The notes beneath the pieces are model-generated. The model had not been told where the DNA came from. It did no database searches and saw nothing but the letters and a program-made list of their open reading frames with translations. This document shows, piece by piece, positions 1,522 to 52,369 of a stretch of DNA of 64,000 bases; position 1 is the first letter of the stretch; every line of letters starts with the position of its first letter. Both the position numbers and the translations under genes were made by a program. The stretch comes from a virus (taxonomy: Duplodnaviria; Heunggongvirae; Uroviricota; Caudoviricetes). The DNA lies in IMG/VR virus record IMGVR_UViG_3300005663_003096, one strand, 5' to 3'.

Positions 1522-2376
1522 TCAGGCGGACCGTTTCATATGCTTGTACTTCCGATCAAAGCTCGCGAGCTTGGGCAGGTCCATGGCGGCCGGCGAGGCG
1601 CGCATCTTGCCATGATCCAGGAACAGGCTGACAGCGCGATCACGATCGATGATCTTCATCGATTTATCGTCCTGACGTGGGCCCCACCCCACCCGCAGGA
1701 GATAGTTCAACATGCCATCGGGATCGACGCCGTCATCGCGGTAGCCCAGAAGACTTGCCGCGGCGTCTCGCTTGGACATCTTTTTGCCGTCCATCGTGAT
1801 CAAGCCGACATGGGCGAAGTCCGGCATCGCGGCTCCGAGGGCCGTGTAGAGCCCAGCATGGCGGAAGGTATTGGTCAGATGATCCATGCCGCGGATAACG
1901 AGGTTCACACCAAGATCGATGTCATCGACCACGGAGGCGAAATGATAGACCGGCATGCCATCGGCTTTGATTAGCACCTGATCATGCGCCAGATCATGCG
2001 CCTTGGCGCTGGGCAGCTGGTCGCCGGAAATCAGATCATGCCAAGGGGCTGCCGCCCCACCCTTCATCAGTACAGCACCATTATCGGCACGGACCGCCAG
2101 CCCTGCATCTAGAAGCTTTGCAGCCGCGGCGTCATAGATGTCGCGCCGGTGCGACTGGCGGTAGACGGCATCGGGTGCAAGGCCCAGCCAATCGAGACAG
2201 TCGTGGATCACGTCGATCGAGGCGTGGTTGTTGCGCGCAAGATCCGTGTCATCGATGCGCAAGATGAAGCGACCGCCACTGGCGCGCGCTGCGAGCCAGT
2301 TGAAATATGCGGTGCGGGCGGTGCCGATGTGAAAGTCGCCGGTTGGAGATGGGGCGACGCGGGTCGTATAGGTCAT
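1522..2376 (-). CDS. gluQ: glutamyl-tRNA synthetase catalytic-domain paralog (GluQRS/YadB-like; no anticodon-binding domain), ~285 aa
   Basis: Protein from MTYTTRVAPSPTGDFHIGTARTAYFNWLAARASGGRFILRIDDTDLARN with HIGH-type motif (HIGT) and KMSKR. It aligns along the GluRS catalytic core (…VVDDIDLGVNLVIRGMDHLTNT…GKKMSKR…LLGYRDDG…NYLLRVGW) but stops after ~285 aa, as in GluQ-RS. Start set at the ATG at 2376, which has an AAGGA Shine-Dalgarno upstream; the track ORF start at 2538 is upstream read-through. Confidence 0.65.
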   Translation of the reverse strand: MTYTTRVAPSPTGDFHIGTARTAYFNWLAARASGGRFILRIDDTDLARNNHASIDVIHDCLDWLGLAPDAVYRQSHRRDIYDAAAAKLLDAGLAVRADNGAVLMKGGAAAPWHDLISGDQLPSAKAHDLAHDQVLIKADGMPVYHFASVVDDIDLGVNLVIRGMDHLTNTFRHAGLYTALGAAMPDFAHVGLITMDGKKMSKRDAAASLLGYRDDGVDPDGMLNYLLRVGWGPRQDDKSMKIIDRDRAVSLFLDHGKMRASPAAMDLPKLASFDRKYKHMKRSA

Positions 2377-2389
2377 TGCGAAAATCCTT

Positions 2390-2740
2390 TCAGACGCCAA
2401 TTCGATGTGCGTGAGCCTGCAGGTCTTCCGGGTCCGCGATGCGCGAGACGCAGAATGCCATTGGCTCATTGAGAGAAGCCGCAACCAGATCAGGAAACTC
2501 GGCTTTGAGGGTTCGGTATGAAGCCAGGGCTTCTTCATCGAAATACGATCCTATGTGGACCGATGTGGGTAGATAATCTCCGGATGTAGGATCAAAGAGG
2601 CGCTGTGCATCTTGATCTGATCTCTGGCGTGTCTGAAGAACCTTGCTGCGCATCCATGCAGCTGCTTCGCCCCGATCGGGGAAGCGGGGCAGCTCCGGAT
2701 CTGGGGAACGTCGTTTGAAACGGCTCAGCATGGACAGCAT
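2390..2740 (-). CDS. hypothetical protein (~116 aa) between the tRNA genes and the GluRS paralog
   Basis: Sub-ORF of track ORF 2390..2851 starting at MLSMLSRFKRR, just downstream of tRNA-like gene 1. Same strand as, and immediately upstream of, the GluRS paralog. Confidence 0.35.
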   Translation of the reverse strand: MLSMLSRFKRRSPDPELPRFPDRGEAAAWMRSKVLQTRQRSDQDAQRLFDPTSGDYLPTSVHIGSYFDEEALASYRTLKAEFPDLVAASLNEPMAFCVSRIADPEDLQAHAHRIGV

Positions 2741-2756
2741 CTTGGTCTCCTGAATT

Positions 2757-2832
2757 TGGCATCCGCAGCGAGGATCGAACTCGCGTCTTCGGGGTGAGGT
2801 CCCGGTATTCTGACCAATTGAACTATGCGGAC
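2757..2832 (-). tRNA. tRNA-like gene, probably tRNA-Glu(CUC), atypical anticodon arm (C33, 27:43 mismatch); possible pseudo-tRNA
   Basis: Reverse complement GTCCGCATAGTTCAATTGGTCAGAATACCGGGACCTCACCCCGAAGACGCGAGTTCGATCCTCGCTGCGGATGCCA folds as a cloverleaf. It has a 7-bp acceptor stem (G1:U72), D-arm GTTC/GAAT, T-arm GCGAG-TTCGATC-CTCGC, discriminator G and an encoded CCA. The anticodon loop ACCTCAC carries C33. Confidence 0.45.
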
Positions 2833-2845
2833 GTGGTTGTGATTT

Positions 2846-2921
2846 TGGCATCTCCTACGAGTCTCGAACTCGTTTCTGCTGCTTGAAAGGCGGCTGTTCT
2901 AACCGGGTGAACTAAGGAGAC
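2846..2921 (-). tRNA. tRNA-Glu(UUC)-like gene, one C·A mismatch in the anticodon stem
   Basis: Reverse complement GTCTCCTTAGTTCACCCGGTTAGAACAGCCGCCTTTCAAGCAGCAGAAACGAGTTCGAGACTCGTAGGAGATGCCA folds as a cloverleaf. It has a 7-bp acceptor stem, D-arm GTTC/GAAC, a canonical anticodon loop CTTTCAA (U33, anticodon TTC, A37), a perfect T-arm ACGAG/CTCGT, discriminator G and an encoded CCA. It lies 13 nt from tRNA-like gene 1. Confidence 0.55.
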
Positions 2922-2931
2922 GTAAGGGCAT

Positions 2932-2955
2932 AAAAAAACCCGCCTCAGGGGCGGG
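2932..2955 (-). terminator. intrinsic terminator-like hairpin (CCCGCC-N-GGCGGG followed by a U7 tract) on the minus strand, 10 nt upstream of tRNA-Glu-like gene 2
   Basis: Plus strand reads AAAAAAACCCGCCTCAGGGGCGGG. On the minus strand this is a GC hairpin followed by UUUUUUU. Confidence 0.5.
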
Positions 2956-3223
2956 TGCATGGGTATCGGGCGCGAAACTGAACTCTGGCGTCAGCGCGTC
3001 TCTCGATACCCGTATTGTTCTTCCTGAAAGCGGAACATGATTTTCTTCCTTTGATTTGGATATCTTTTTCGCACAACTCAAAGGGTCCGTCAAGAATAAT
3101 TTTCGCAAGCATCGCAGGGCCACTTATCGAGGCATATATGTGGAAAACCCCAGATCATCGTTTTTCTAAAAAGGGTCACAGACTACCCTGACGGCAACCA
3201 TACCTGATAAAAGAGACCTCCTC

Positions 3224-5486: not shown

Positions 5487-6764
5487 TCAAGGACAGGGCT
5501 CCTCCACTCCCAGGGCTTTTCGCAGTGTGATCTCAACATTCTCACGGCAGGGCCCTTCTGATTTGAGCTTGAGATCATGCCCGCAAAGACCTCCGATAAC
5601 CTCGGCGAGGTTCTCAGTGTCAATCTCTGAAACAAAGGGCCCCTCTCCCATATCCATCACCGAGATCTCGATCTTATCGCCCAGCTGATCGAGGCAGGTG
5701 ACCCCCAGGCCATGATCAATGCCTACGCCCTGCCCTGTGCTGCGCGCGAGATCGGCCGAGATGATGCGGTCCAGCTCTCGGAGGTCCAGAGGTGCATAAC
5801 GGATGGCGTCCTGCCATTCGTTTGGCCTGTTGGTGCGGTCGATCACCTCAGTACCGGGCAAGGGCGTCGTTCCGCGGTCGAGCGGGAACGGCCCTGCCCC
5901 GTGTCGCGTTGCATAGGCCCGGGTCATATAGATGATCTCGAGATCGGTGATCTCGGCGTCTCGAGCGATGTCCACCATATTCTTGGCGCCAGTATGCGAC
6001 CGCGTCACGTGAGGGAATTCTCCGAGGTCCATATCGAGTTGCAACCCTTGGGCGCCCTCAAAGACAATGGCATCGCGATCGCCCAGGGCGCTATCCGACA
6101 TGATCGAGACATACTGCGTAAAGTGGCGCAGATCGTCATAAAATCGCTCAACGACTTCTGGGGCGTTGCCGAGAACAGGCTTTAAATGGTCTGGGATGCT
6201 ATCGAGACCAAGGGCTGCCAGGCGCTGCGGCACCCAAGAACTCGAAATCTCGTCGAGAAATCGTGCGAGGTCAGGCCGCCAAAGGTCATTCATGCAAAGC
6301 ATTGGCCCCTGCTCCTGCCGTTCCAAGGTCTCACCAAAGCCGAGACCACAAGATCCGTGCTTATCACCGCCGCGGAAAATCTCAGCTGCCTGATTGATGG
6401 CCATGTCCCAGGGTGTTGTCACCGCTGTGCGCGGATCGGCCGTGATCTGAATATCCTTTACGCCTTTGCGCGCGAGATCCTCGATCTCAGCAAAGAAGAC
6501 AATCGGATGAGATACAAAGAAGCGGGACAGATGGGTGGCGGCGCCTCGGAAGGATCCGGACCCGATGTGATGGAAGACATGGTGGCGGCCGTCAGCCATG
6601 GTGACGCCGTGGCCCGCCTGTGCGCCGCCATTGGAACGCACGACAGTGACCTGGCGCCCCTGCCCCTCAAGCTGCGCCGTGAGCGCATCTGTGGCCAGCC
6701 CCTTGCCTTCATCACCCCAGCCGGCGCCGATGATCCCACAGGCTTTGCGGATGTCATTTCCCAT
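5487..6764 (-). CDS. adenylosuccinate synthetase (PurA) family protein, divergent paralog
   Basis: Matches PurA signatures: GAGWGDEGKG (P-loop-like GDEGKGK), GGAQAGHGV, FEGAQGLQLDMDLGEFPHVTRSHT, RAYATRHGAGPFP and GVGIDHGLGV. It is 425 aa, clearly divergent from housekeeping PurA. Confidence 0.7.
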   Translation of the reverse strand: MGNDIRKACGIIGAGWGDEGKGLATDALTAQLEGQGRQVTVVRSNGGAQAGHGVTMADGRHHVFHHIGSGSFRGAATHLSRFFVSHPIVFFAEIEDLARKGVKDIQITADPRTAVTTPWDMAINQAAEIFRGGDKHGSCGLGFGETLERQEQGPMLCMNDLWRPDLARFLDEISSSWVPQRLAALGLDSIPDHLKPVLGNAPEVVERFYDDLRHFTQYVSIMSDSALGDRDAIVFEGAQGLQLDMDLGEFPHVTRSHTGAKNMVDIARDAEITDLEIIYMTRAYATRHGAGPFPLDRGTTPLPGTEVIDRTNRPNEWQDAIRYAPLDLRELDRIISADLARSTGQGVGIDHGLGVTCLDQLGDKIEISVMDMGEGPFVSEIDTENLAEVIGGLCGHDLKLKSEGPCRENVEITLRKALGVEEPCP

Positions 6765-10998: not shown

Positions 10999-11697
10999 AT
11001 GATGACCGAGACCCCGCCCCGGAATGAGCGTGAGTACAACCCGATCTGCACTGTCGACGGGGTGCTTCTGACCATCGAGCAGGAATGCCTTAAGGTCTTG
11101 CTGCACCGCCGCCCCAAGGCGCCCTTTGAGGGGCGCTGGGCGCTCGTAGGCGGCTACATTCACCAGAATGAAGATGCGGGCGTGCTGGAGGCGGTCCAGC
11201 GCATCCTGCGTGACAAGGCGGGGCTACCGACGCTCTACCTTGAGCAGCTGCAGACCTACTCCGGCCCGGACCGTGACCCGCGGGGCTGGTCCGTGTCTGT
11301 GGCCCATCTGGGGCTTGTGCCGCGCGCGAAGCTAAAGCTGCCCGATGACCCGCATGTCATGCTGACAGATGTCGAAGGGCTGCCAGATCTCGCTTTCGAC
11401 CATAAGCAGATGATCGACGATGCCGTCGCGCGGCTGCGCGGTAAGGGCGCCTATTCCTCCCTGCCCGCTGCCCTGCTGGATGATCTCTTCACCCTGCCCG
11501 AGCTGCTGCGTACCTATGAGATCGTTCTGGGCACCAAGATCGATGAGAGCTCCTTCCGTCGCAAGATAAATGCCCTCGAGATGATCGAGGACAGCGGTGA
11601 GAAGCGCAAGACCGGCAGCAAGCGTCCGGCGGCGCTCTATCGCCTAACCGAGCCCGCGCAGACCTTTAATCGAACATTTGCGGCCGCGGCGGGCTGA
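10999..11697 (+). CDS. Nudix-domain transcriptional regulator, NrtR-like (degenerate Nudix box plus C-terminal winged-helix region)
   Basis: Nudix-like segment GRWALVGGYIHQNEDAGVLEAVQRILRDKAGL (Gx5Ex7R..L..D.AGL, degenerate). Total length ~230 aa with a C-terminal domain, as in NrtR. Strong Shine-Dalgarno GAGAGGAGAT before the ATG. Confidence 0.55.
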   Translation: MMTETPPRNEREYNPICTVDGVLLTIEQECLKVLLHRRPKAPFEGRWALVGGYIHQNEDAGVLEAVQRILRDKAGLPTLYLEQLQTYSGPDRDPRGWSVSVAHLGLVPRAKLKLPDDPHVMLTDVEGLPDLAFDHKQMIDDAVARLRGKGAYSSLPAALLDDLFTLPELLRTYEIVLGTKIDESSFRRKINALEMIEDSGEKRKTGSKRPAALYRLTEPAQTFNRTFAAAAG

Positions 11698-23582: not shown

Positions 23583-23636
23583 TTAAAACGCTTAAACTGA
23601 GTAGCGATATAACTTTTGAAACTTACGGACGAATTT

Positions 23637-25340
23637 ATGCTGAAATCGAAAGATGCGTGGCAAGAATATTTCAATGAAGTCAGCTTCCCCCTAAGGGATG
23701 TGAGCAAACATGTCAGCACAGCGGTGTTTGCAGTGTACGATGGAGTGTGCATTTTTTGTAAAGAGCGAAAGGCTGAACACGTAGACCACATCGTTCCGCA
23801 CTCCCTGGGTGGGCCTGATAGATCCGATAATTTCGCTGCATCCTGCACGCGGTGTAATTTGCGAAAACACGATAAATTACTGCCTCTACCGGTTCTCGGA
23901 ATCGCGCTCCTGGAGGCGCGCAGGAAAGCTGAAGATGTAGAGCAAATGATTGCGGAGCTCGAAAATGGGGTTCAATCGACATACAAAGCATATCGATCTA
24001 AAGGGGAACGTGCCGTTCTATTGCACGAAAGCTATATTCTTCATAGATGTGAAGACGGGGGGGGCGTGAGGCCTGTCGCTCGGATCTATTACAAGAATGA
24101 TCCTCGATCTCGGCTAGGTCATCACCATCAGAATGGCGATTTCCCGGATATTCGCTTCTCATACGGCCGCAAATTTCTGAAGTCCAAGATGGCTCACGCC
24201 CTTTCTCCGGGGCTCCCTCTGGAGCCCGAAGAATACAAGAACCCTGAGGACTTCGAGACGCTAAACCTGCTTAGGGATATGGAGCCCGACCATTGGGGGC
24301 GAAGTATCGTGGACTACGCGGTACACCTAACCACCAATCGACATCCCAAGATGAGCGACTACCTCCTCTTCAACGAGACACGGTTCCGCCCTGGAGGTCT
24401 ATTCCTCGCCAAGACGCCCGGAGGTGAGGGAATTGGATACGATATCAGCTTGGCTGATCGTGAGGTGACATTCGATGACGCAGTCCGCTTTCAGACATTC
24501 ATGGATGCACAGGAAGATTTCTGGGCGGAACTTCCCGCTGAACTTCATCATTGCCTTCCAGCCGCTGCTGCTTTGGGGGGCGCTCAGCCGAAGATATGCA
24601 TCGACTGGATGGATGAGCTATGGGTGCTAAAATTGCCAAACGAGCGTCACGTTATCAACATGGCCGCGGCCGAGGCGGGCTGTCTTGACCTTTGCGAAAT
24701 GGCAGGCATTGCCGTACCTGATCGAGAGGTAAGATCCTTTGGACCCCGCTCGAGTGTGTTATTGGTCAAGCGCTTTGACAGAGTTTCCGCGCCTGGAGGC
24801 CGCATTCGCCGCCATATGATATCCTCACTCACACTGCTTGAGCGTCATGAGATGGACCGAGGGGTATCTGGTTATGCTGATATCTACCTAGCACTTCGGG
24901 CTTCCGGAGCGCCCAGTGTCGTCGGTGAGGATCTTTACCGTCGAATGCTGATGAATGTTCTTTGCGGCAATACCGACGATCATTATAGGAACCACGCTTT
25001 TTTCCAGAAAGATGACGGATCATTCACACCAACGCCCGTTTACGATGTCACTCCGACTATTCAAGTATCCCCATCTCGCAGGTTGTTCCTGCATCTCGGG
25101 AGGGCCGGGTGTGGCCGGGATGCGACAGTTGAAAATGCAGTGTCAGCGGCAAGCTCTCTGGATGTCGAACGAGATAGGGCCATTGAGATTGCCAATGAGC
25201 TTAGCTTGATGGTCGCTAGAAGCTGGAAAGATGCGATGAGACGGCATGGCGCGAGTGATGTCTGTATCGAAAGGATGGCGACGAGCTTCTCTGAGGCTGG
25301 CAATACAATCGCCTGCAATGACCCGGGTTTGAACATGTGA
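23637..25340 (+). CDS. HNH endonuclease domain fused to a HipA-like Ser/Thr kinase
   Basis: N-terminal CIFCKERKAEHVDHIVPHSLGGPDRSDNFAASCTRCNLRKHDK is a canonical HNH. The C-terminal part carries the HipA catalytic motifs GAQPKICIDW and CGNTDDHYRNHAFF. Local GC is lower than the flanks. The track ORF starts at TTG 23616; the first ATG is at 23637. Confidence 0.65.
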   Translation: MLKSKDAWQEYFNEVSFPLRDVSKHVSTAVFAVYDGVCIFCKERKAEHVDHIVPHSLGGPDRSDNFAASCTRCNLRKHDKLLPLPVLGIALLEARRKAEDVEQMIAELENGVQSTYKAYRSKGERAVLLHESYILHRCEDGGGVRPVARIYYKNDPRSRLGHHHQNGDFPDIRFSYGRKFLKSKMAHALSPGLPLEPEEYKNPEDFETLNLLRDMEPDHWGRSIVDYAVHLTTNRHPKMSDYLLFNETRFRPGGLFLAKTPGGEGIGYDISLADREVTFDDAVRFQTFMDAQEDFWAELPAELHHCLPAAAALGGAQPKICIDWMDELWVLKLPNERHVINMAAAEAGCLDLCEMAGIAVPDREVRSFGPRSSVLLVKRFDRVSAPGGRIRRHMISSLTLLERHEMDRGVSGYADIYLALRASGAPSVVGEDLYRRMLMNVLCGNTDDHYRNHAFFQKDDGSFTPTPVYDVTPTIQVSPSRRLFLHLGRAGCGRDATVENAVSAASSLDVERDRAIEIANELSLMVARSWKDAMRRHGASDVCIERMATSFSEAGNTIACNDPGLNM

Positions 25341-26523: not shown

Positions 26524-27438
26524 ATGGTTGGTGACGCGGACCTGAATCGAGAGGCACCCTTCGATAACAATATCACCGACGCGCTGGGCCTATATGTCTA
26601 TGCCCTCTTCGATCCGCGAGACGGCTCCCCTTTCTATGTGGGCAAAGGTGGCGGCCGGCACGGCAACGATCGCGTTCTGCACCATTTCTTCGAAGCCAGG
26701 GAAGACATGAAGCGTGAATCTGGTCCCAATGACAAGGAACGCGCCAAGCTCAAAAGGATTCAAGAAATATGGGGCGCCGGTCTCGAGGTTGAATGGAAGA
26801 TCATGCGCCGCAAACTGCGGGATGAGGCGGAAGCACTGAATGTAGAAGCCGCCTTGATGGATGCATTCGCCGCCTGTGGCCACATCCTCACCAACATCCA
26901 AGGCGGCCACAGGAGTGGCCATCAAGGGCTGATTGCGGGGAGTGCGCTAAGGGAATTCGCAGCACCTCCAATCACCGGACAAGATTTCCCGGCCGAGCTG
27001 CGCAACCGACCGATCTTTATCTTCAACATCGGCACCAAGGTCAGCAGGATGTGGAAGAAGATCGACCGGATCAAAAACCCTAAAGAAAGACCTGACTACG
27101 TCAAAGCAACACAATGTTGCTGGAAACTGGGGCCCTATTGGCCAAATCAGCGTGATGCCATCGCCATGGGGGTCGTGGCGGGCATCAGCCGCTCCGCAAT
27201 AGGCATTGCTGATTGGACGCCCTGTACAGATGACCCGGAGCGGTGGCAGATCACGCCGACGGAATTAGATCCTGAAATCCACCAAGTGGTGGTGAACAGA
27301 AAATTCAGCGCGCTTCTTGAGCCAGTCAAAGGGTATCTGCAGCTCGGCGGATTTACCGTCATAGAAATCTCAGACGAGGGCGAATGTACTTTCCTTCGTG
27401 GTTCTAAATCGTCACAGAAGGCTGGTTCCAGCGGCTGA
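26524..27438 (+). CDS. GIY-YIG nuclease domain protein
   Basis: GLYVYALFDPRDGSPFYVGKGGGRHGNDRV contains the GIY…YIG-type pair (LYVY … FYVGKG), with a conserved Arg and downstream Glu/Asn. Confidence 0.55.
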   Translation: MVGDADLNREAPFDNNITDALGLYVYALFDPRDGSPFYVGKGGGRHGNDRVLHHFFEAREDMKRESGPNDKERAKLKRIQEIWGAGLEVEWKIMRRKLRDEAEALNVEAALMDAFAACGHILTNIQGGHRSGHQGLIAGSALREFAAPPITGQDFPAELRNRPIFIFNIGTKVSRMWKKIDRIKNPKERPDYVKATQCCWKLGPYWPNQRDAIAMGVVAGISRSAIGIADWTPCTDDPERWQITPTELDPEIHQVVVNRKFSALLEPVKGYLQLGGFTVIEISDEGECTFLRGSKSSQKAGSSG

Positions 27439-28755: not shown

Positions 28756-29892
28756 TCAGGCAGAGAAGCGCGCGCGCGACGCTGACAGGGCGTCCACGAG
28801 CCCTTCATGGACCTGTCCCGCCTCGCAGTCCTCTCCCAAGCTCACGAGCTCTGAGAGCGCCGCAGAGCGCCCAGGACGACCCTCTAAGCCAAAGGCGCGG
28901 CGCACGTCCGCCAAAGTCTCCATGGTGAGCACATGGGCGCGCTTGCGGCCTTCTTCGAGGATATGGTCTACCAACTCGATATCAGCTGCGGCTTCGGCGC
29001 GCCGCGCCCGCATGGGCGCCAGCATCTCTTGCAAGATCCCGTCCAGACGCCGCTTCAATACCATGTCGCCGAGCCCACCGGCGCGGTACTGATCCTTGAG
29101 GTCCGCTACAGCACCGCTGTCTGGATCAAAAGCATCGAGCATGGCAAAGACCACATTGCCCTCGACCTTGCCGGGGTCCGAGACCTTCAGATGGCCTGGA
29201 TCGGTGAACATGCGCATGACAGCCGCGCGGATCTCTTCCGGGCTGTCGCGCAGCGCGATGGCATTGCCGGCGGATTTGGACATCTTGCCTGCCCCGTCGA
29301 TGCCCGGCAGCCGCGGCGCGTTGCTCTGCATCAAGGTTGGAGAGACCAGGACCTTGCGCCCAGCCATGCGGTTCACCTTCCCCGTGATCTCACCGGTGAT
29401 CTCGACAAGCGGCGCTTGGTCGGCGCCTGCGGGCACGATGTCTGCGCCAAAGGCGGTGATGTCGGCCGCCTGGCTGACCGGGTAGCAAAGAAAGCCCGCC
29501 GGGGTGCCATCGCCGAAGCCGCGCTGGGTGATCTCTTCACGGATCGTGGGAATGCGCATCAGACGCGGCACGGTGACCAGGTTCATATAGAGCATGGTCA
29601 GCTCGTTGAGTGCGGGCAGATCGGACTGGCGCACGATGGTCACCCGCTCAGGGTCGATGCCGGCCGCGATGTAATCAAGCACCACCTCGCGCACATTGGC
29701 CGCCACATCTGCGGCGCGCCCGGCGTTGTCCGTCAGCGCCTGCATGTCGGCGACCAGGATGGTCACGTCGTTCTTGTCCTGCAGGGCGACGCGCGCCTGA
29801 AGGGTCCCGGCGAGATGGCCGAGATGCAGCGCACCGGTGGGCCGGTCGCCGGTGAGGATGGTTCTGCCTTCGAGGGTAGAGAGATCTTGCAT
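28756..29892 (-). CDS. trpS: tryptophanyl-tRNA synthetase
   Basis: Class I motifs TGDRPTGALHLGH (HIGH-type) and KMSKS. TrpRS-specific segments LVADMQALTD (D-x-Q/H-A-x-T) and YPVSQAADITAFGADIVPAGADQ (compare E. coli YPVLMAADILLY…VPVGEDQ). Start at the ATG at 29892 (MQDLSTLEGRTILTG). Confidence 0.8.
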   Translation of the reverse strand: MQDLSTLEGRTILTGDRPTGALHLGHLAGTLQARVALQDKNDVTILVADMQALTDNAGRAADVAANVREVVLDYIAAGIDPERVTIVRQSDLPALNELTMLYMNLVTVPRLMRIPTIREEITQRGFGDGTPAGFLCYPVSQAADITAFGADIVPAGADQAPLVEITGEITGKVNRMAGRKVLVSPTLMQSNAPRLPGIDGAGKMSKSAGNAIALRDSPEEIRAAVMRMFTDPGHLKVSDPGKVEGNVVFAMLDAFDPDSGAVADLKDQYRAGGLGDMVLKRRLDGILQEMLAPMRARRAEAAADIELVDHILEEGRKRAHVLTMETLADVRRAFGLEGRPGRSAALSELVSLGEDCEAGQVHEGLVDALSASRARFSA

Positions 29893-30004: not shown

Positions 30005-30055
30005 TCAGAGAGGCAGCCACCAATTGATCGCGCAGATGGGTTTATCCTGTGTCAT
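30005..30055 (-). promoter_or_regulatory. candidate Trp attenuator leader peptide MTQDKPICAINWWLPL (tandem TGG TGG codons) ~110 nt upstream of trpS
   Basis: Minus-strand 16-codon ORF ATGACACAGGATAAACCCATCTGCGCGATCAATTGGTGGCTGCCTCTCTGA. Downstream are mutually exclusive pairings GCGGCC…GGCCGC versus GCCGC-gtgat-GCGGC, the latter followed by UU. Confidence 0.45.
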
Positions 30056-37984: not shown

Positions 37985-38053
37985 ATGATGAACATGATCG
38001 CCTCCACCACGACGACAACAACCACCCATCCCGGGCGGAGCGTTGTCGTGTGA
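37985..38053 (+). promoter_or_regulatory. Thr attenuator leader peptide MMNMIASTTTTTTTHPGRSVVV (seven consecutive Thr codons)
   Basis: 22-codon ORF ATGATGAACATGATCGCCTCC-ACCACGACGACAACAACCACC-CATCCCGGGCGGAGCGTTGTCGTGTGA. The Thr-codon block CGACGACAAC is complementary to the downstream GTTGTCGTG. It is followed by hairpins and an intrinsic terminator, directly upstream of the ThrRS paralog. Confidence 0.65.
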
Positions 38054-38151: not shown

Positions 38152-39402
38152 ATGAATAAGAACAACCACAAAGACCTCGATATCCCTCAAGAACAAGGCA
38201 TGGATCCTCTGGACCACCGCGTGCTCGCGCGCCGCCTCGATCTCTATCACATCGAAGAAGATGCGCCGGGCATGATCTATTGGCACGCCGCCGGTTGGCA
38301 GATCTACCGCGAGCTCGAAGATTATATCCGCGGCCGCATGCGGGGCTTAGGTTATGGTGAGGTGCGCTCGCCGCAGCTGTTGCCCCAGTCCCTCTGGGAA
38401 GCCTCCGGTCACTGGGAGAAGTTCGGCGAGAACATGTTCGCCGTGCCGGCGCGCGAGGAAGGCGGCCGCGATATGGCCCTGAAGCCGATGAGCTGCCCGT
38501 GTCATTTGCAGATATTTAACTCGGATCTGCGCTCTTGGCGTGATCTGCCGATGCGCATTGCCGAGTTCGGCCAGTGCCACCGCGATGAGGCTTCGGGCTC
38601 GATGCATGGGCTCATGCGCACCAAGGCTTTCGAGCAGGACGATGCTCATGTGATCTGCGATCCCGGTCAGGTACGCGGCGAGGTTGCGCGTTTCGTTGAG
38701 CTGCTGAAGGAAGTCTATGCCGCTCTGGGCTTTGCTGATTTCGAGGTGGCGCTGTCGCTGCGCCCCGAAAAGCGCGCCGGCAATGATGCGGATTGGGATC
38801 ACGCGGAGCAGGAACTGCTGGGAGCGGCCCTCTCCTGCGGGCTCGACCCGAAGCTGCAGCTCGGCGAAGGTGCCTTCTACGGGCCCAAGCTGGAGTTCGC
38901 GCTGCGCGACAAGAAAGGCCGCTCCTGGCAGTGCGGCACCATCCAGCTCGATATGGTCCTGCCAGGCCGACTGGGCGCATCCTATGTTGGCAAGGACGGT
39001 GCCAAACATGAGCCGGTGATGCTGCACCACGCTGTGTTGGGGTCCTTGGGACGCTTCATTGGTATTCTGCTGGAGCATTGCGAAGGCCGCCTGCCCCTCT
39101 GGCTGGCGCCGGTACAGGTGGCGGTCCTGCCCATTGGGGATGATCAGCGCGACGCTGCTGTGGATGTCATGGACCAGCTGCGCGCCGCGGGGCTGCGCCC
39201 TGCCCTTTTTGATCAATCCGAAGGGCTCGGCCGCCGGATCGTCATGGTCCGCGATCAGTTGATCCCGGTTCAGATCGTGATTGGGAAACTGGAGGTGGAG
39301 CGTGGCGAAGTGATGCTGCAGATCGGCGGGGGCAAAGAGGCGCTGTCGCCAGCCGCGGCCATTGCGCGGATGGGTGAGCTTGTCGGGGTGCCGAAGGGGT
39401 GA
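38152..39402 (+). CDS. threonyl-tRNA synthetase paralog, catalytic plus anticodon-binding domains only (N-terminal TGS/editing domains absent)
   Basis: Aligns with E. coli ThrRS from about residue 225 onward: LDLYHIEEDAPGMIYWHAAGWQIYRELE…KPMSCPCHLQIFNSDLRSWRDLPMRIAEFGQCHRDEASGSMHGLMRTKAFEQDDAHV…QCGTIQLDMVLPGRLGASYVG. 416 aa versus ~640 for full-length ThrRS. Confidence 0.75.
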   Translation: MNKNNHKDLDIPQEQGMDPLDHRVLARRLDLYHIEEDAPGMIYWHAAGWQIYRELEDYIRGRMRGLGYGEVRSPQLLPQSLWEASGHWEKFGENMFAVPAREEGGRDMALKPMSCPCHLQIFNSDLRSWRDLPMRIAEFGQCHRDEASGSMHGLMRTKAFEQDDAHVICDPGQVRGEVARFVELLKEVYAALGFADFEVALSLRPEKRAGNDADWDHAEQELLGAALSCGLDPKLQLGEGAFYGPKLEFALRDKKGRSWQCGTIQLDMVLPGRLGASYVGKDGAKHEPVMLHHAVLGSLGRFIGILLEHCEGRLPLWLAPVQVAVLPIGDDQRDAAVDVMDQLRAAGLRPALFDQSEGLGRRIVMVRDQLIPVQIVIGKLEVERGEVMLQIGGGKEALSPAAAIARMGELVGVPKG

Positions 39403-50709: not shown

Positions 50710-51899
50710 CCCCCAACGCCGCTGATATCGAGGAGAAGCTTCTGCAGATCCTCAAGGACAACCGACCCGGGAAAGAGGTTCGAGGCTGCAACACCCATCT
50801 CGATATCTATGAACGCGCAGTTCAGAAGGAGATCATTGAGCCTCTTTTCAAAGACCTTGGAGAGCAGGGTCGGATTCAGGACATCGATGATCTGGGACAT
50901 GACACGGAGTTCAAATTGGTTTGGAACCGCGCGCTGCGGGGCCAGTGCGAAGATTGGGATTGTCGAACTCTGGCAAACCTCTTCATCACAAATGCGGTCC
51001 GGGACGTGCCGGATTTCTTCCGAGTTGTCTTCAAAGACGACTACGACGCGATCGACGCAGCCATCCTCAAGAACCTTCCGGATCTTCTGTCAGGGGGCGG
51101 CATGGGTCCCTACACTGGGTGGGGCTTGAAGTCATGGATGACGGGTGCGCACGTCGACATCAAAATGGATGGCCTCCAGGCAAGCTTCTGTGCGCGCGAT
51201 GGGAGCACCCTCGAGCCACCCCCAAGGTATATCGCCTATAAAGACAGCGACCCCAGCCAAGAGCCGGTCGAGGTCTACGGCCTGATGAGCTTCCACTGCG
51301 AAGAGATCGACTATGACACCTCCATCAAAGCCTGGCAGGCTTGGTCAAATGCCCTGAGGAGTAAAGAGCTGAACCGGCGCGATCAATATGACAGCGTCGT
51401 GGGTCGCATGCTCATGAATCTCCTTCCACTGAACGAGATTGGCATCTCCCAGATGGTGTTGCGCCAGGATGAATCCGTATCTGTCGAAGCGGGCCCGGAT
51501 GGGGTCATCGCCTACCGCGGTGAAGTCCGTGGATTGAAGCGCCTTGTCGATGAGGGGCAATTCCTCTGCGGCCCGCGCGCAAGGTTCGCGGAGATCCTGG
51601 AAACGGGTGGCTTCTCGAAAGCAGGCGCGGGTGCGTTTCTCGATACCTTGGCGCAAAGCAGCTCCGCCTTCTGCGCGCTGGCGCCGGCCGGGTCGAACTT
51701 TCGCTATATGCTGGACCCTGAAACTCTCATGGCCTTCGAGGAAGATGGCGATGACATGCTCTATGATCTCGATAAAGCAGATGCGCTGCCGATCATGGCT
51801 GCTGGCACCTTCGAGATGCCTGAGATGATCACCCACCGTGACCGCGAGGCCCGTAAACTCGCGGCAAATCTCTCATCCGAGCTTGGAGAGCCCACATGA
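50706..51899 (+). CDS. hypothetical protein
   Basis: ORF of 397 aa, ATGA-coupled to both neighbours. Confidence 0.45.
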   Translation: MTPNAADIEEKLLQILKDNRPGKEVRGCNTHLDIYERAVQKEIIEPLFKDLGEQGRIQDIDDLGHDTEFKLVWNRALRGQCEDWDCRTLANLFITNAVRDVPDFFRVVFKDDYDAIDAAILKNLPDLLSGGGMGPYTGWGLKSWMTGAHVDIKMDGLQASFCARDGSTLEPPPRYIAYKDSDPSQEPVEVYGLMSFHCEEIDYDTSIKAWQAWSNALRSKELNRRDQYDSVVGRMLMNLLPLNEIGISQMVLRQDESVSVEAGPDGVIAYRGEVRGLKRLVDEGQFLCGPRARFAEILETGGFSKAGAGAFLDTLAQSSSAFCALAPAGSNFRYMLDPETLMAFEEDGDDMLYDLDKADALPIMAAGTFEMPEMITHRDREARKLAANLSSELGEPT

Positions 51900-52369
51900 A
51901 GATGCAATCCCTCTACATCAAACGCCCCCTCGCCCCGTCCGATAACGATATGATCGTCGACATGATGGCGCGTTTTGACTTTGAGTGTGAGGTCGATCTG
52001 CACCTGACGCTGATCTATTCAAAGCGCGAGGTCGACTGGAGCTTGCCTGTCTTCCAAGCGATGGAAGCCCCCCTGGAGATCGTGCCACAGGATCTTGCCT
52101 TTGACCGGTTCGGCCCTCACCTGGTGCTGACCATGCGTTGCCCTGAGATCGAGGCGCGGCACCGCGCGCTGGTCGCGGCCGGCGCGCATTTCGCCTTCCC
52201 GGAGTTCAATGCGCATATCTCGCTGGGGCTCGACCCTGAGGGAGCTGTGCAGGACTATCCTGATCTCTCGGGGATTACCGGGCTCCAGTTTGAAGGCGAG
52301 GTCCGCGGGCTTGCCAATAAAGCAGAGTCCAAGGTGAAGCCGCCCGAAGATGAGCCTGAAATGACCTGA
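51896..52369 (+). CDS. 2H phosphoesterase superfamily protein (LigT/2'-5' RNA ligase/CPDase-like)
   Basis: Two H-x-T/S-x motifs at the expected spacing: HLTLIYS and HISLGLD. ~157 aa. Confidence 0.55.
   Translation: MKMQSLYIKRPLAPSDNDMIVDMMARFDFECEVDLHLTLIYSKREVDWSLPVFQAMEAPLEIVPQDLAFDRFGPHLVLTMRCPEIEARHRALVAAGAHFAFPEFNAHISLGLDPEGAVQDYPDLSGITGLQFEGEVRGLANKAESKVKPPEDEPEMT

Follow-up and report, generated by a model that had tools for sequence, protein, structure and literature searches.

A probable leader-peptide attenuator ahead of tRNA-Glu genes and a truncated glutamyl-tRNA synthetase on what is likely a very large phage-like element

Attenuators that depend on translation of a leader peptide are known to precede aminoacyl-tRNA synthetase (aaRS) genes, pheST and the Streptomyces trpS and leuS being among them (PMC1262725), and huge phages, as surveyed by Al-Shayeb et al. 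2020 (PMC7162821), encode tRNAs and up to 15 synthetases with which they possibly charge their own tRNAs. The locus considered here lies in IMG/VR virus record IMGVR_UViG_3300005663_003096 (Caudoviricetes), 64,000 nucleotides (nt) of which were analyzed and are referred to in their entirety as ‘the window’. On the minus strand a short leader, a stem-loop and an intrinsic terminator precede two tRNA-Glu genes, a gene for a protein of 116 amino acids (aa) and one for a truncated glutamyl-tRNA synthetase (GluRS, here also ‘mini-GluRS’). We consider it probable, with appreciable room for doubt, that together these form a charging-sensitive, leader-peptide-attenuated tRNA-Glu/mini-GluRS operon on a very large phage-like element. 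From upstream to downstream the features are:

3039..3053, minus strand: Shine-Dalgarno region, AAAGGAAGAAAAUC 5' of the AUG; AAGGAAG is upstream of the ORF
2991..3038, minus strand: leader open reading frame (ORF) of 15 codons, MFRFQEEQYGYRETR followed by a stop codon, read from the sequence
2961..3011, minus strand: stem-loop P1, GGGUAUCG...CGAUACCC plus an inner helix
2932..2956, minus strand: intrinsic terminator, from a terminator scan, stopping 10 nt short of the 5' end of the tRNA
2846..2921, minus strand: tRNA-Glu(UUC), called by ARAGORN, 52.9 bits with the Rfam tRNA model
2757..2832, minus strand: tRNA-Glu(CUC), called by ARAGORN, 53.7 bits with the Rfam tRNA model
2390..2740, minus strand: ORF116, 116 aa, between the tRNAs and the GluRS gene, present in this clade only
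1522..2376, minus strand: truncated GluRS, 284 aa, from PF00749, gltX_bact, PDB, and AlphaFold2 with Foldseek

Codons 6-8 of the leader ORF are GAA GAA CAA, the tandem GAA lying at 3023-3018, and codon 13 is GAG. GAA (40%) and CAA (26%) are the minor synonymous codons in the genes of the window, where Glu takes 7.3% of codons. The final six sense codons of the leader ORF and its stop codon are covered by P1, whose RNA fold z-score is -3.0. The terminator, ACCCGCC-CCUGA-GGCGGGU and then U7, has a 7-bp GC-rich stem and a 5-nt loop. A preliminary description of this DNA, made from its letters, had reported a hairpin with a U7 tract 10 nt 5' of the tRNA and seen in it a hint of read-through control; the hairpin is indeed there, at 2956-2932 on the minus strand, and the hint has gained in substance with its recognition as the terminator of a conserved translated leader. 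Alignment of seven contigs has the leader block, the 122 nt directly 5' of the first tRNA, 96.5% identical, with identity of 100% from codon 10 through the U7 tract and with the Shine-Dalgarno region kept, whereas identity falls to 87% in the adjacent coding DNA and to 61% in the 27 nt 5' of the leader block.

The same layout of ORF, P1 and hairpin is found before the first tRNA-Glu where the GluRS is only 51-77% identical and the GC content very different, there being equivalents of the hairpin and U-tract in the related loci L102, L103, L086, L157 and L163. In 15 loci a small ORF with E-(x)-E-Q is present 60-120 nt 5' of the first tRNA-Glu; the scan for such ORFs, in about 70 loci, gave only 2 other matches anywhere upstream; the L256/L257 leader has E-Q only. 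Glu/Gln codons are the only universally conserved leader codons and stand in every case 9-11 nt before P1. The P1 helix is retained in L102 though the reading frame through it differs, and therefore the conserved coding feature is the Glu/Gln codon cluster. For P1 there is covariation: among 11 divergent leaders all 55 cells of the outer stem are paired, with compensatory changes in 5/5 pairs, which 0 of 500 shuffles equaled, and slid controls pair in 25-51%. A motif taken from one leader group has seven matches in IMG/VR; their contigs measure 54-494 kb, five exceeding 100 kb, and every one of the seven matches is followed by tRNA-Glu, at +64 to +79. As a negative control, the loose EEQ-plus-hairpin pattern GAAGAACAA...CCCGCC...GGCGG has 72 IMG/VR matches with a tRNA following in none. 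Rfam gave no T-box match in the region searched under its gathering threshold; a search with E <= 10 had none either and returned only tRNAs and terminator-driven noise.

Is such a leader peculiar to Glu? Elsewhere in the window, genes for a threonyl- and a tryptophanyl-tRNA synthetase (ThrRS and TrpRS) have cognate-codon leaders of their own:

37985-38053, plus strand: Thr leader ORF, MMNMIASTTTTTTTHPGRSVVV followed by a stop codon, with seven consecutive Thr codons
38083-38107, plus strand: hairpin and U6 of the Thr leader
38152-39402, plus strand: ThrRS, TIGR00418 at 425 bits, above cut-off, over model positions 169-540
30005-30055, minus strand: Trp leader ORF, MTQDKPICAINWWLPL followed by a stop codon, with tandem Trp codons, abutting a hairpin upstream of TrpRS
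28756-29892, minus strand: TrpRS, TIGR00233 above cut-off

The Thr leader is directly upstream of its ThrRS, an enzyme without the N-terminal editing/TGS part, while the Trp leader has a long second hairpin 5' of the TrpRS Shine-Dalgarno site and no clear U-tract. Given three cognate-codon leaders before three synthetase units, attenuation is the most parsimonious account of the Glu leader. Searches of viral contigs with the ThrRS and TrpRS of the window found no relatives. Sinorhizobium phage Phosso was tried for comparison and set aside: its ThrRS is full-length and hence not comparable.

As judged by sequence, curated hidden Markov model (HMM) cut-offs and predicted fold, the synthetase at the end of the cluster is a truncated bacterial GluRS. 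The match of the 284-aa ORF, 1522-2376 on the minus strand, to PF00749 (the class I Glu/Gln-RS catalytic domain; E = 3e-58) agrees with the approximately 285-aa GluRS lacking an anticodon-binding domain that had been described. The appellation ‘GluQRS-like’ has not survived, HMM cut-offs, PDB sequence search and predicted fold all favoring GluRS. Two parts of the enzyme are present, a catalytic Rossmann domain and a stem-contact region; its HIGH signature is HIGTART and its KMSKS signature KMSKR. With gltX_bact (TIGR00464, NCBIfam) it scores 249.3 bits, and the curated cut-off of 289.95 is not reached because the match stops at model position 318 of 470, the anticodon-binding half being missing. 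All of the GluQRS models of NCBIfam, including those of the TIGR03838/PRK05710 type, give 100-155 bits versus cut-offs of 250-453, with the four top-scoring at about 121-155 bits versus 250-380. The PDB sequence search returned bacterial GluRS chains at 1e-51 to 1e-36 and YadB at 1.7e-21. An AlphaFold2 model built on 28 homologs has a predicted local distance difference test score (pLDDT) of 93.9, and its best Foldseek matches are bacterial GluRS with template modeling (TM) scores of 0.84-0.89 (0.87 over the query, and about 0.53 when normalized by the length of the GluRS target) and 34-38% identity; GluQRS comes only at ranks 43 and 44, with TM 0.70-0.78.

In the 28 homologs (53-82% identity) the HIGH, KMSKR and PSPTG signatures are invariant, as is the KMSKR serine, S201. 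The family has RIDDTD where GluRS has RIEDTD, and its connective-peptide (CP)/putative zinc-binding insertion is shortened and without Cys ligands. The homologs among the matches listed (53-99% identical) are uniformly of 277-330 aa, 120 out of 120, and the truncation is therefore a stable architecture. Differences between the GluRS genes of seven close relatives number 364/122/1811 at codon positions 1/2/3, a third-position bias. A profile search of genome contigs with the family alignment found nothing but canonical gltX from other phyla, none above 40% identity.

The two tRNA-Glu genes are in tandem 13 nt apart, at 2757-2832 and 2846-2921, as had been reported; ARAGORN, by which the preliminary description had proposed they be scored, calls both as tRNA-Glu (CUC and UUC), and the gathering score of the Rfam tRNA model, with which both are detected, is 29. 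That these might be pseudogenes was rejected on the good covariance-model scores and strong conservation. Both have an encoded CCA, G1.U72 and a variable loop of 4 nt, as is typical for tRNA-Glu in bacteria, and both keep the universal nucleotides U8, A14, G18G19, A21, G53-U54-U55-C56, A58 and C61. The mean pairwise identity of tRNA-Glu(UUC) in the seven contigs is 98.5%. The oddities remarked on earlier, G1.U72 in both, mismatches in the anticodon stems and one C33, are borne out by the sequence, with C29.A41 in tRNA-Glu(UUC) and C27.A43 as well as C33 in tRNA-Glu(CUC). As a trait that defines the module, an ‘atypical tRNA’ had to be abandoned: the CUC tRNA with C33 and C27.A43 is restricted to the window and three near-identical contigs (L104-L106). 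In L107-L109, where GluRS is 92-94% identical, the same CUC tRNA body has a canonical U33 arm, GUGCC-CUCUCAA-GGCAC, in place of the CCGGG-ACCUCAC-CCCGA with C33 of the window, a difference more suggestive of an exchanged arm than of point drift. The window CUC arm resembles the anticodon arm of the UUC tRNA in L102. Position 72 varies among relatives between U and C (C in L106), and the 29.41 pair of the UUC tRNA is C.A or A.A within the clade and U-A in L103, where the stem is fully paired. Going by these comparisons the odd traits vary by lineage in tRNAs that are otherwise ordinary and well conserved, with no defining non-canonical design.

Among non-redundant loci of the family with at least 2.5 kb of upstream sequence (n=46), tRNA-Glu is upstream on the same strand in 18, and in 6/6 of those at >=70% identity. 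Of 109 tRNA genes upstream of family GluRS, 50 are tRNA-Glu, typically with both the UUC and CUC isoacceptors. Recurring as it does in many independent contigs, the arrangement is more than chance, and the dedicated pairing of enzyme and tRNA-Glu that had been suggested is strengthened by linkage kept across very divergent elements. The second commonest neighbor of the truncated GluRS, after tRNA-Glu, is tRNA-Arg: tRNA-Arg(UCU/CCU) genes are 0.03-4.6 kb downstream of GluRS in many loci (L089, L091, L093, L094, L087 and others).

The carrier is likely a very large tRNA-rich phage-like element, a ‘huge phage’. The approximately 285-aa GluRS family is large and resides on tRNA-rich contigs of 100 kb to >1 Mb, many of them classed as viral. 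A protein identical to that of the window is on contigs in the 0.2-1 Mb size class, and relatives are on IMG/VR contigs of 54-608 kb and, at 93% identity, on metagenome contigs of up to 656 kb (Ga0208018_100003). Named homologs come from isolates of Rhodobacterales (Epibacterium, Paracoccus, Leisingera and Cereibacter), with related elements in Epibacterium sp. DP7N7-1 and Leisingera sp. XS_AS12. Proteins of the window match 19 PHROG families (E <= 1e-8), most window genes are without a Pfam match, and HNH and GIY-YIG nucleases and an RNA-ligase PHROG are also encoded. Blastn with the locus had no match in plasmids or phages, nor did the leader plus tRNAs in plasmids. The closest plasmid homologs are on Methylobacterium plasmid pVL1_2, with no tRNA nearby, and on a Variovorax plasmid, where a tRNA cluster is 3 kb off across insertion sequence (IS) elements.

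As to charging activity, the direction of the regulation and the physical switch, we infer the following working. Promoter, leader, P1, terminator, tRNA-Glu(UUC), tRNA-Glu(CUC), ORF116 and mini-GluRS would be a single minus-strand operon, with the mini-GluRS glutamylating the co-encoded tRNA-Glu isoacceptors through contacts limited to the acceptor and D-arm. The GluRS of E. coli depends on modified U34. Anticodon-blind charging would be independent of the anticodon and of its modification, and so could serve both isoacceptors and under-modified transcripts, the resulting Glu-tRNA feeding translation of the Glu-rich genes of the element. A ribosome translating the leader would reach the tandem GAA and the Gln codon 9-11 nt before P1. 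Were charged Glu-tRNA scarce, and probably GluRS-dependent Gln-tRNA too (where a host has no GlnRS, its Gln-tRNA supply depends on GluRS as well), the ribosome would pause there, with consequent read-through of U7 into the tRNA and GluRS genes; were charged Glu-tRNA plentiful, transcription would end 10 nt before the first tRNA.

Several points weigh against this operon, or parts of it. The activity of an enzyme without an anticodon-binding domain, and with a reduced CP insertion and RIDDTD, can only be presumed, and the C33 of the window CUC tRNA may impair decoding. In 28 of the 46 loci there is no adjacent tRNA-Glu, with mixed tRNA arrays or none nearby. Equilibrium folding constrained by ribosome footprints found no mutually exclusive antiterminator, the terminator being kept in every state, a result that is uninformative rather than negative because the same test also fails on the unmistakable leader with seven Thr codons. 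In the leaders of L087, L089, L091, L093, L256 and L262 the second hairpin is without a U-tract and an extra long-range helix pairs the first codons with the 3' side of P1, so that termination may not be the universal output of these leaders. With respect to the carrier, no capsid, terminase or other structural phage gene is present in the 64 kb, and homologs are on contigs of 1.46 Mb (L137) and 1.82 Mb (L103) and in isolate assemblies. L102 is a 519 kb contig of an Epibacterium isolate and, like L103 and L137, carries the same tRNA-Glu/GluRS module; some carriers may be integrated elements or megaplasmids, not free phages. The contigs of L103 and L137 exceed any described phage.

The main alternative for the block upstream of the tRNAs, though we would wager against it, is that the leader is non-regulatory: a small gene or small RNA with its own terminator, or a hairpin that stabilizes the 3' end after RNase P cleavage, constitutive expression of the tRNAs then coming from leaky read-through or from a phage RNA polymerase indifferent to the hairpin. 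An RNase P cut at the tRNA 5' end would free a leader that finishes in a hairpin, folding revealed no antiterminator, and one leader group is without a U-tract. Such a leader leaves unaccounted for the restriction of universal codons to Glu/Gln at a fixed 9-11 nt from P1, the upkeep of P1 structure in L102 despite its altered reading frame, and the cognate-codon leaders that also precede ThrRS and TrpRS; in addition, the distance from U-tract to tRNA in the window, L086 and L157 is 8-10 nt, which gives no room for a promoter there. A different proposal retains the attenuators and alters their purpose. The Glu, Trp and Thr units with their cognate-codon leaders would be inducible replacement charging modules, switched on only when the host synthetase or tRNA has been knocked out; the agent could be Hip-type kinases, tRNA-cleaving defences or the element's own HNH-HipA_C protein (see below), which would then be a weapon of host shut-off to which the truncated enzymes are immune. 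We regard this as improbable, and if true it would amount to a sense-and-respond counter-defence circuit built from attenuators.

Three further possibilities concern the enzyme. It could be a decoy or regulator that titrates a kinase of the HipA type or a toxin directed at tRNA, or binds its own leader, with the tRNAs then the sole functional translational part. HipA kinases target GltX and TrpS (PMC8262856), the KMSKR serine that is the HipA target in GltX is invariant here as S201, and an HNH+HipA_C protein is encoded in the window; catalytic signatures that are all invariant in 28 homologs at 53-82% identity would be needless in a decoy, however, and there was no PADLOC match, leaving us to think it quite improbable. 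Could the Glu-tRNA be for a non-ribosomal consumer, such as a LanB-type dehydratase/PEARL, glutamyl-tRNA reductase (GluTR) or Mom-like DNA modification? Glu-tRNA-dependent enzymes exist, phage Mu Mom modifies DNA using Gly-tRNA (PMC13219725) and the PurA/PurZ-like gene of the window hints at nucleotide chemistry. The odds seem long, with no LanB, GNAT/Mom or GluTR Pfam match in the 75 window proteins (E <= 1e-6), no such family in the annotated neighborhoods of relatives, and a translated Glu-codon leader that senses ribosomal demand, as leaders of the same kind before ThrRS and TrpRS would. A lanthipeptide or PEARL context was rejected since no such genes are present, and the earlier association with tRNA-dependent dehydratases lapses likewise, the window having no gene for one. 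There is, last, the GluQRS-type tRNA modifier, which would place glutamate on a modified anticodon base and not on the 3' end. Size and the missing anticodon-binding domain match YadB and GluQRS models do match weakly, yet these fall far under their cut-offs when gltX_bact gives 249 bits, YadB is the weaker PDB match (1.7e-21 versus 1e-51) and the poorer structural one, and the adjoining genes are for tRNA-Glu, whose position 34 is C or U, and not for tRNA-Asp, in which G34 becomes queuosine; we give it the least credence of all. Taken as a whole, the earlier observation is borne out in all its details, the feature being conserved and looking functional, and the earlier interpretation is partly supported; the attenuated tRNA-Glu/mini-GluRS operon is the reading we prefer.

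Within that operon, ORF116 has no Pfam, NCBIfam, PHROG or PADLOC match. The 380 nt given earlier between GluRS and the tRNAs was right as a distance to the nearer tRNA, and this stretch is occupied by the 116-aa gene at 2390-2740. Between relatives its differences at codon positions 1/2/3 are 198/136/604, a third-position bias on account of which it is a real coding sequence. L102 and L103 are without it, their tRNAs directly adjoining the GluRS gene. On the other side a large gene at 2-1444 on the minus strand, corresponding to an 849-aa gene in L003, starts 78 nt past the GluRS stop codon and may share its transcript; it too has no Pfam, NCBIfam, PHROG or PADLOC match.

Some relatives without adjacent tRNA-Glu have Glu-rich ORFs upstream of the GluRS itself. 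In L092, L096, L123 and L132 a conserved ORF, ...NNLTGEEESFKV..., with three consecutive Glu codons, is at -128 to -5 from the start of the truncated GluRS, so that 5 nt separate the two. Further examples, each followed by a stop codon, are MEEQQAGSL in L135 and ...ATEEEF in L131. These may be other forms of Glu-codon control. Odd tRNA calls were encountered in L151 (+3086 from GluRS), L094/L140 (-382) and L144; they include a tRNA with a CUA anticodon (amber suppressor or Pyl-type), one with a 4-nt anticodon and two that are ambiguous, and may reflect recoding in some related elements.

Other genes of the window merit mention. The HNH-HipA_C protein referred to above, of 574 aa (23616-25340, plus strand), has HNH at residues 45-88 fused to a HipA_C kinase domain at 319-537 (2e-37). 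Its gene is 21 kb from the GluRS module, and the occurrence of the element's own GluRS and TrpRS in the same window is a coincidence to be noted alongside the earlier remark that GluRS is a target of HipA toxins. The gene at 5487-6764 (minus strand) is for a divergent adenylosuccinate-synthetase-like protein, far under the cut-offs of PurA models and matching PHROG 1211 (annotated PurZ-type), which may hint at modified purine or DNA chemistry. The anti-CBASS protein Acb1 is encoded at 51896-52369, a GIY-YIG protein with a PADLOC match to PD-T4-3 at 26524-27438 and a Nudix regulator resembling NrtR at 10999-11697; such conflict- and NAD-related accessory genes are typical of phage genomes.

If the operon works in the manner proposed, the vague idea of translation genes in big phages would become a concrete, testable circuit. 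A GluRS without an anticodon reader, together with both Glu isoacceptors, would be a natural experiment in how little a synthetase needs in order to recognize its tRNA, and might yield orthogonal pairs. The Thr, Trp and Glu leaders together suggest that these elements track the charging status of the host for each amino acid separately, and such sensors are relevant to the means by which giant phages or plasmids commandeer or buffer translation in the host.

How then does the locus stand with respect to what is known? With bacterial GluRS (GltX, TIGR00464) the window enzyme shares the catalytic domain, HIGH, KMSKS and the Glu-binding PSPTG region; it differs in being without the C-terminal anticodon-binding half, in its shorter CP insertion and in having RIDDTD for RIEDTD. 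GluQRS/YadB, the glutamyl transferase for tRNA-Asp queuosine, is alike in its approximately 290 aa, GluRS-like core and lack of an anticodon-binding domain, but is more distant by sequence, HMM and fold, and the partner genes in the window are tRNA-Glu, not tRNA-Asp. T-box riboswitches are analogous in function, giving charging-dependent control of aaRS genes at a terminator, whereas the leader here is about 120 nt, translated and without a specifier loop or T-box bulge. The huge-phage translation sets (PMC7162821) are alike in their large tRNA-rich genomes with several aaRSs, and relatives of the window are on 250-600 kb contigs; the part of that survey drawn on does not describe an anticodon-domain-less GluRS clade, the UUC plus CUC tRNA-Glu pairing or leader-peptide control. 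The established attenuators, trpL, thrL, pheM-pheST and Streptomyces trpS/leuS, also have a Shine-Dalgarno-led cognate-codon ORF, a stem-loop at the end of the ORF and a terminator, but the window has Glu (and Gln) codons, tRNAs as the first regulated genes, a mobile or viral carrier and no identified antiterminator; no Glu-codon leader, or attenuator gating tRNA genes, is described in Rfam or the literature searched. The locus thus combines two known kinds, the phage-type aaRS/tRNA complement and the leader-peptide attenuator, and it is unusual in the loss of the anticodon-binding domain, in Glu as the regulatory codon and in tRNA genes as the first attenuated products.

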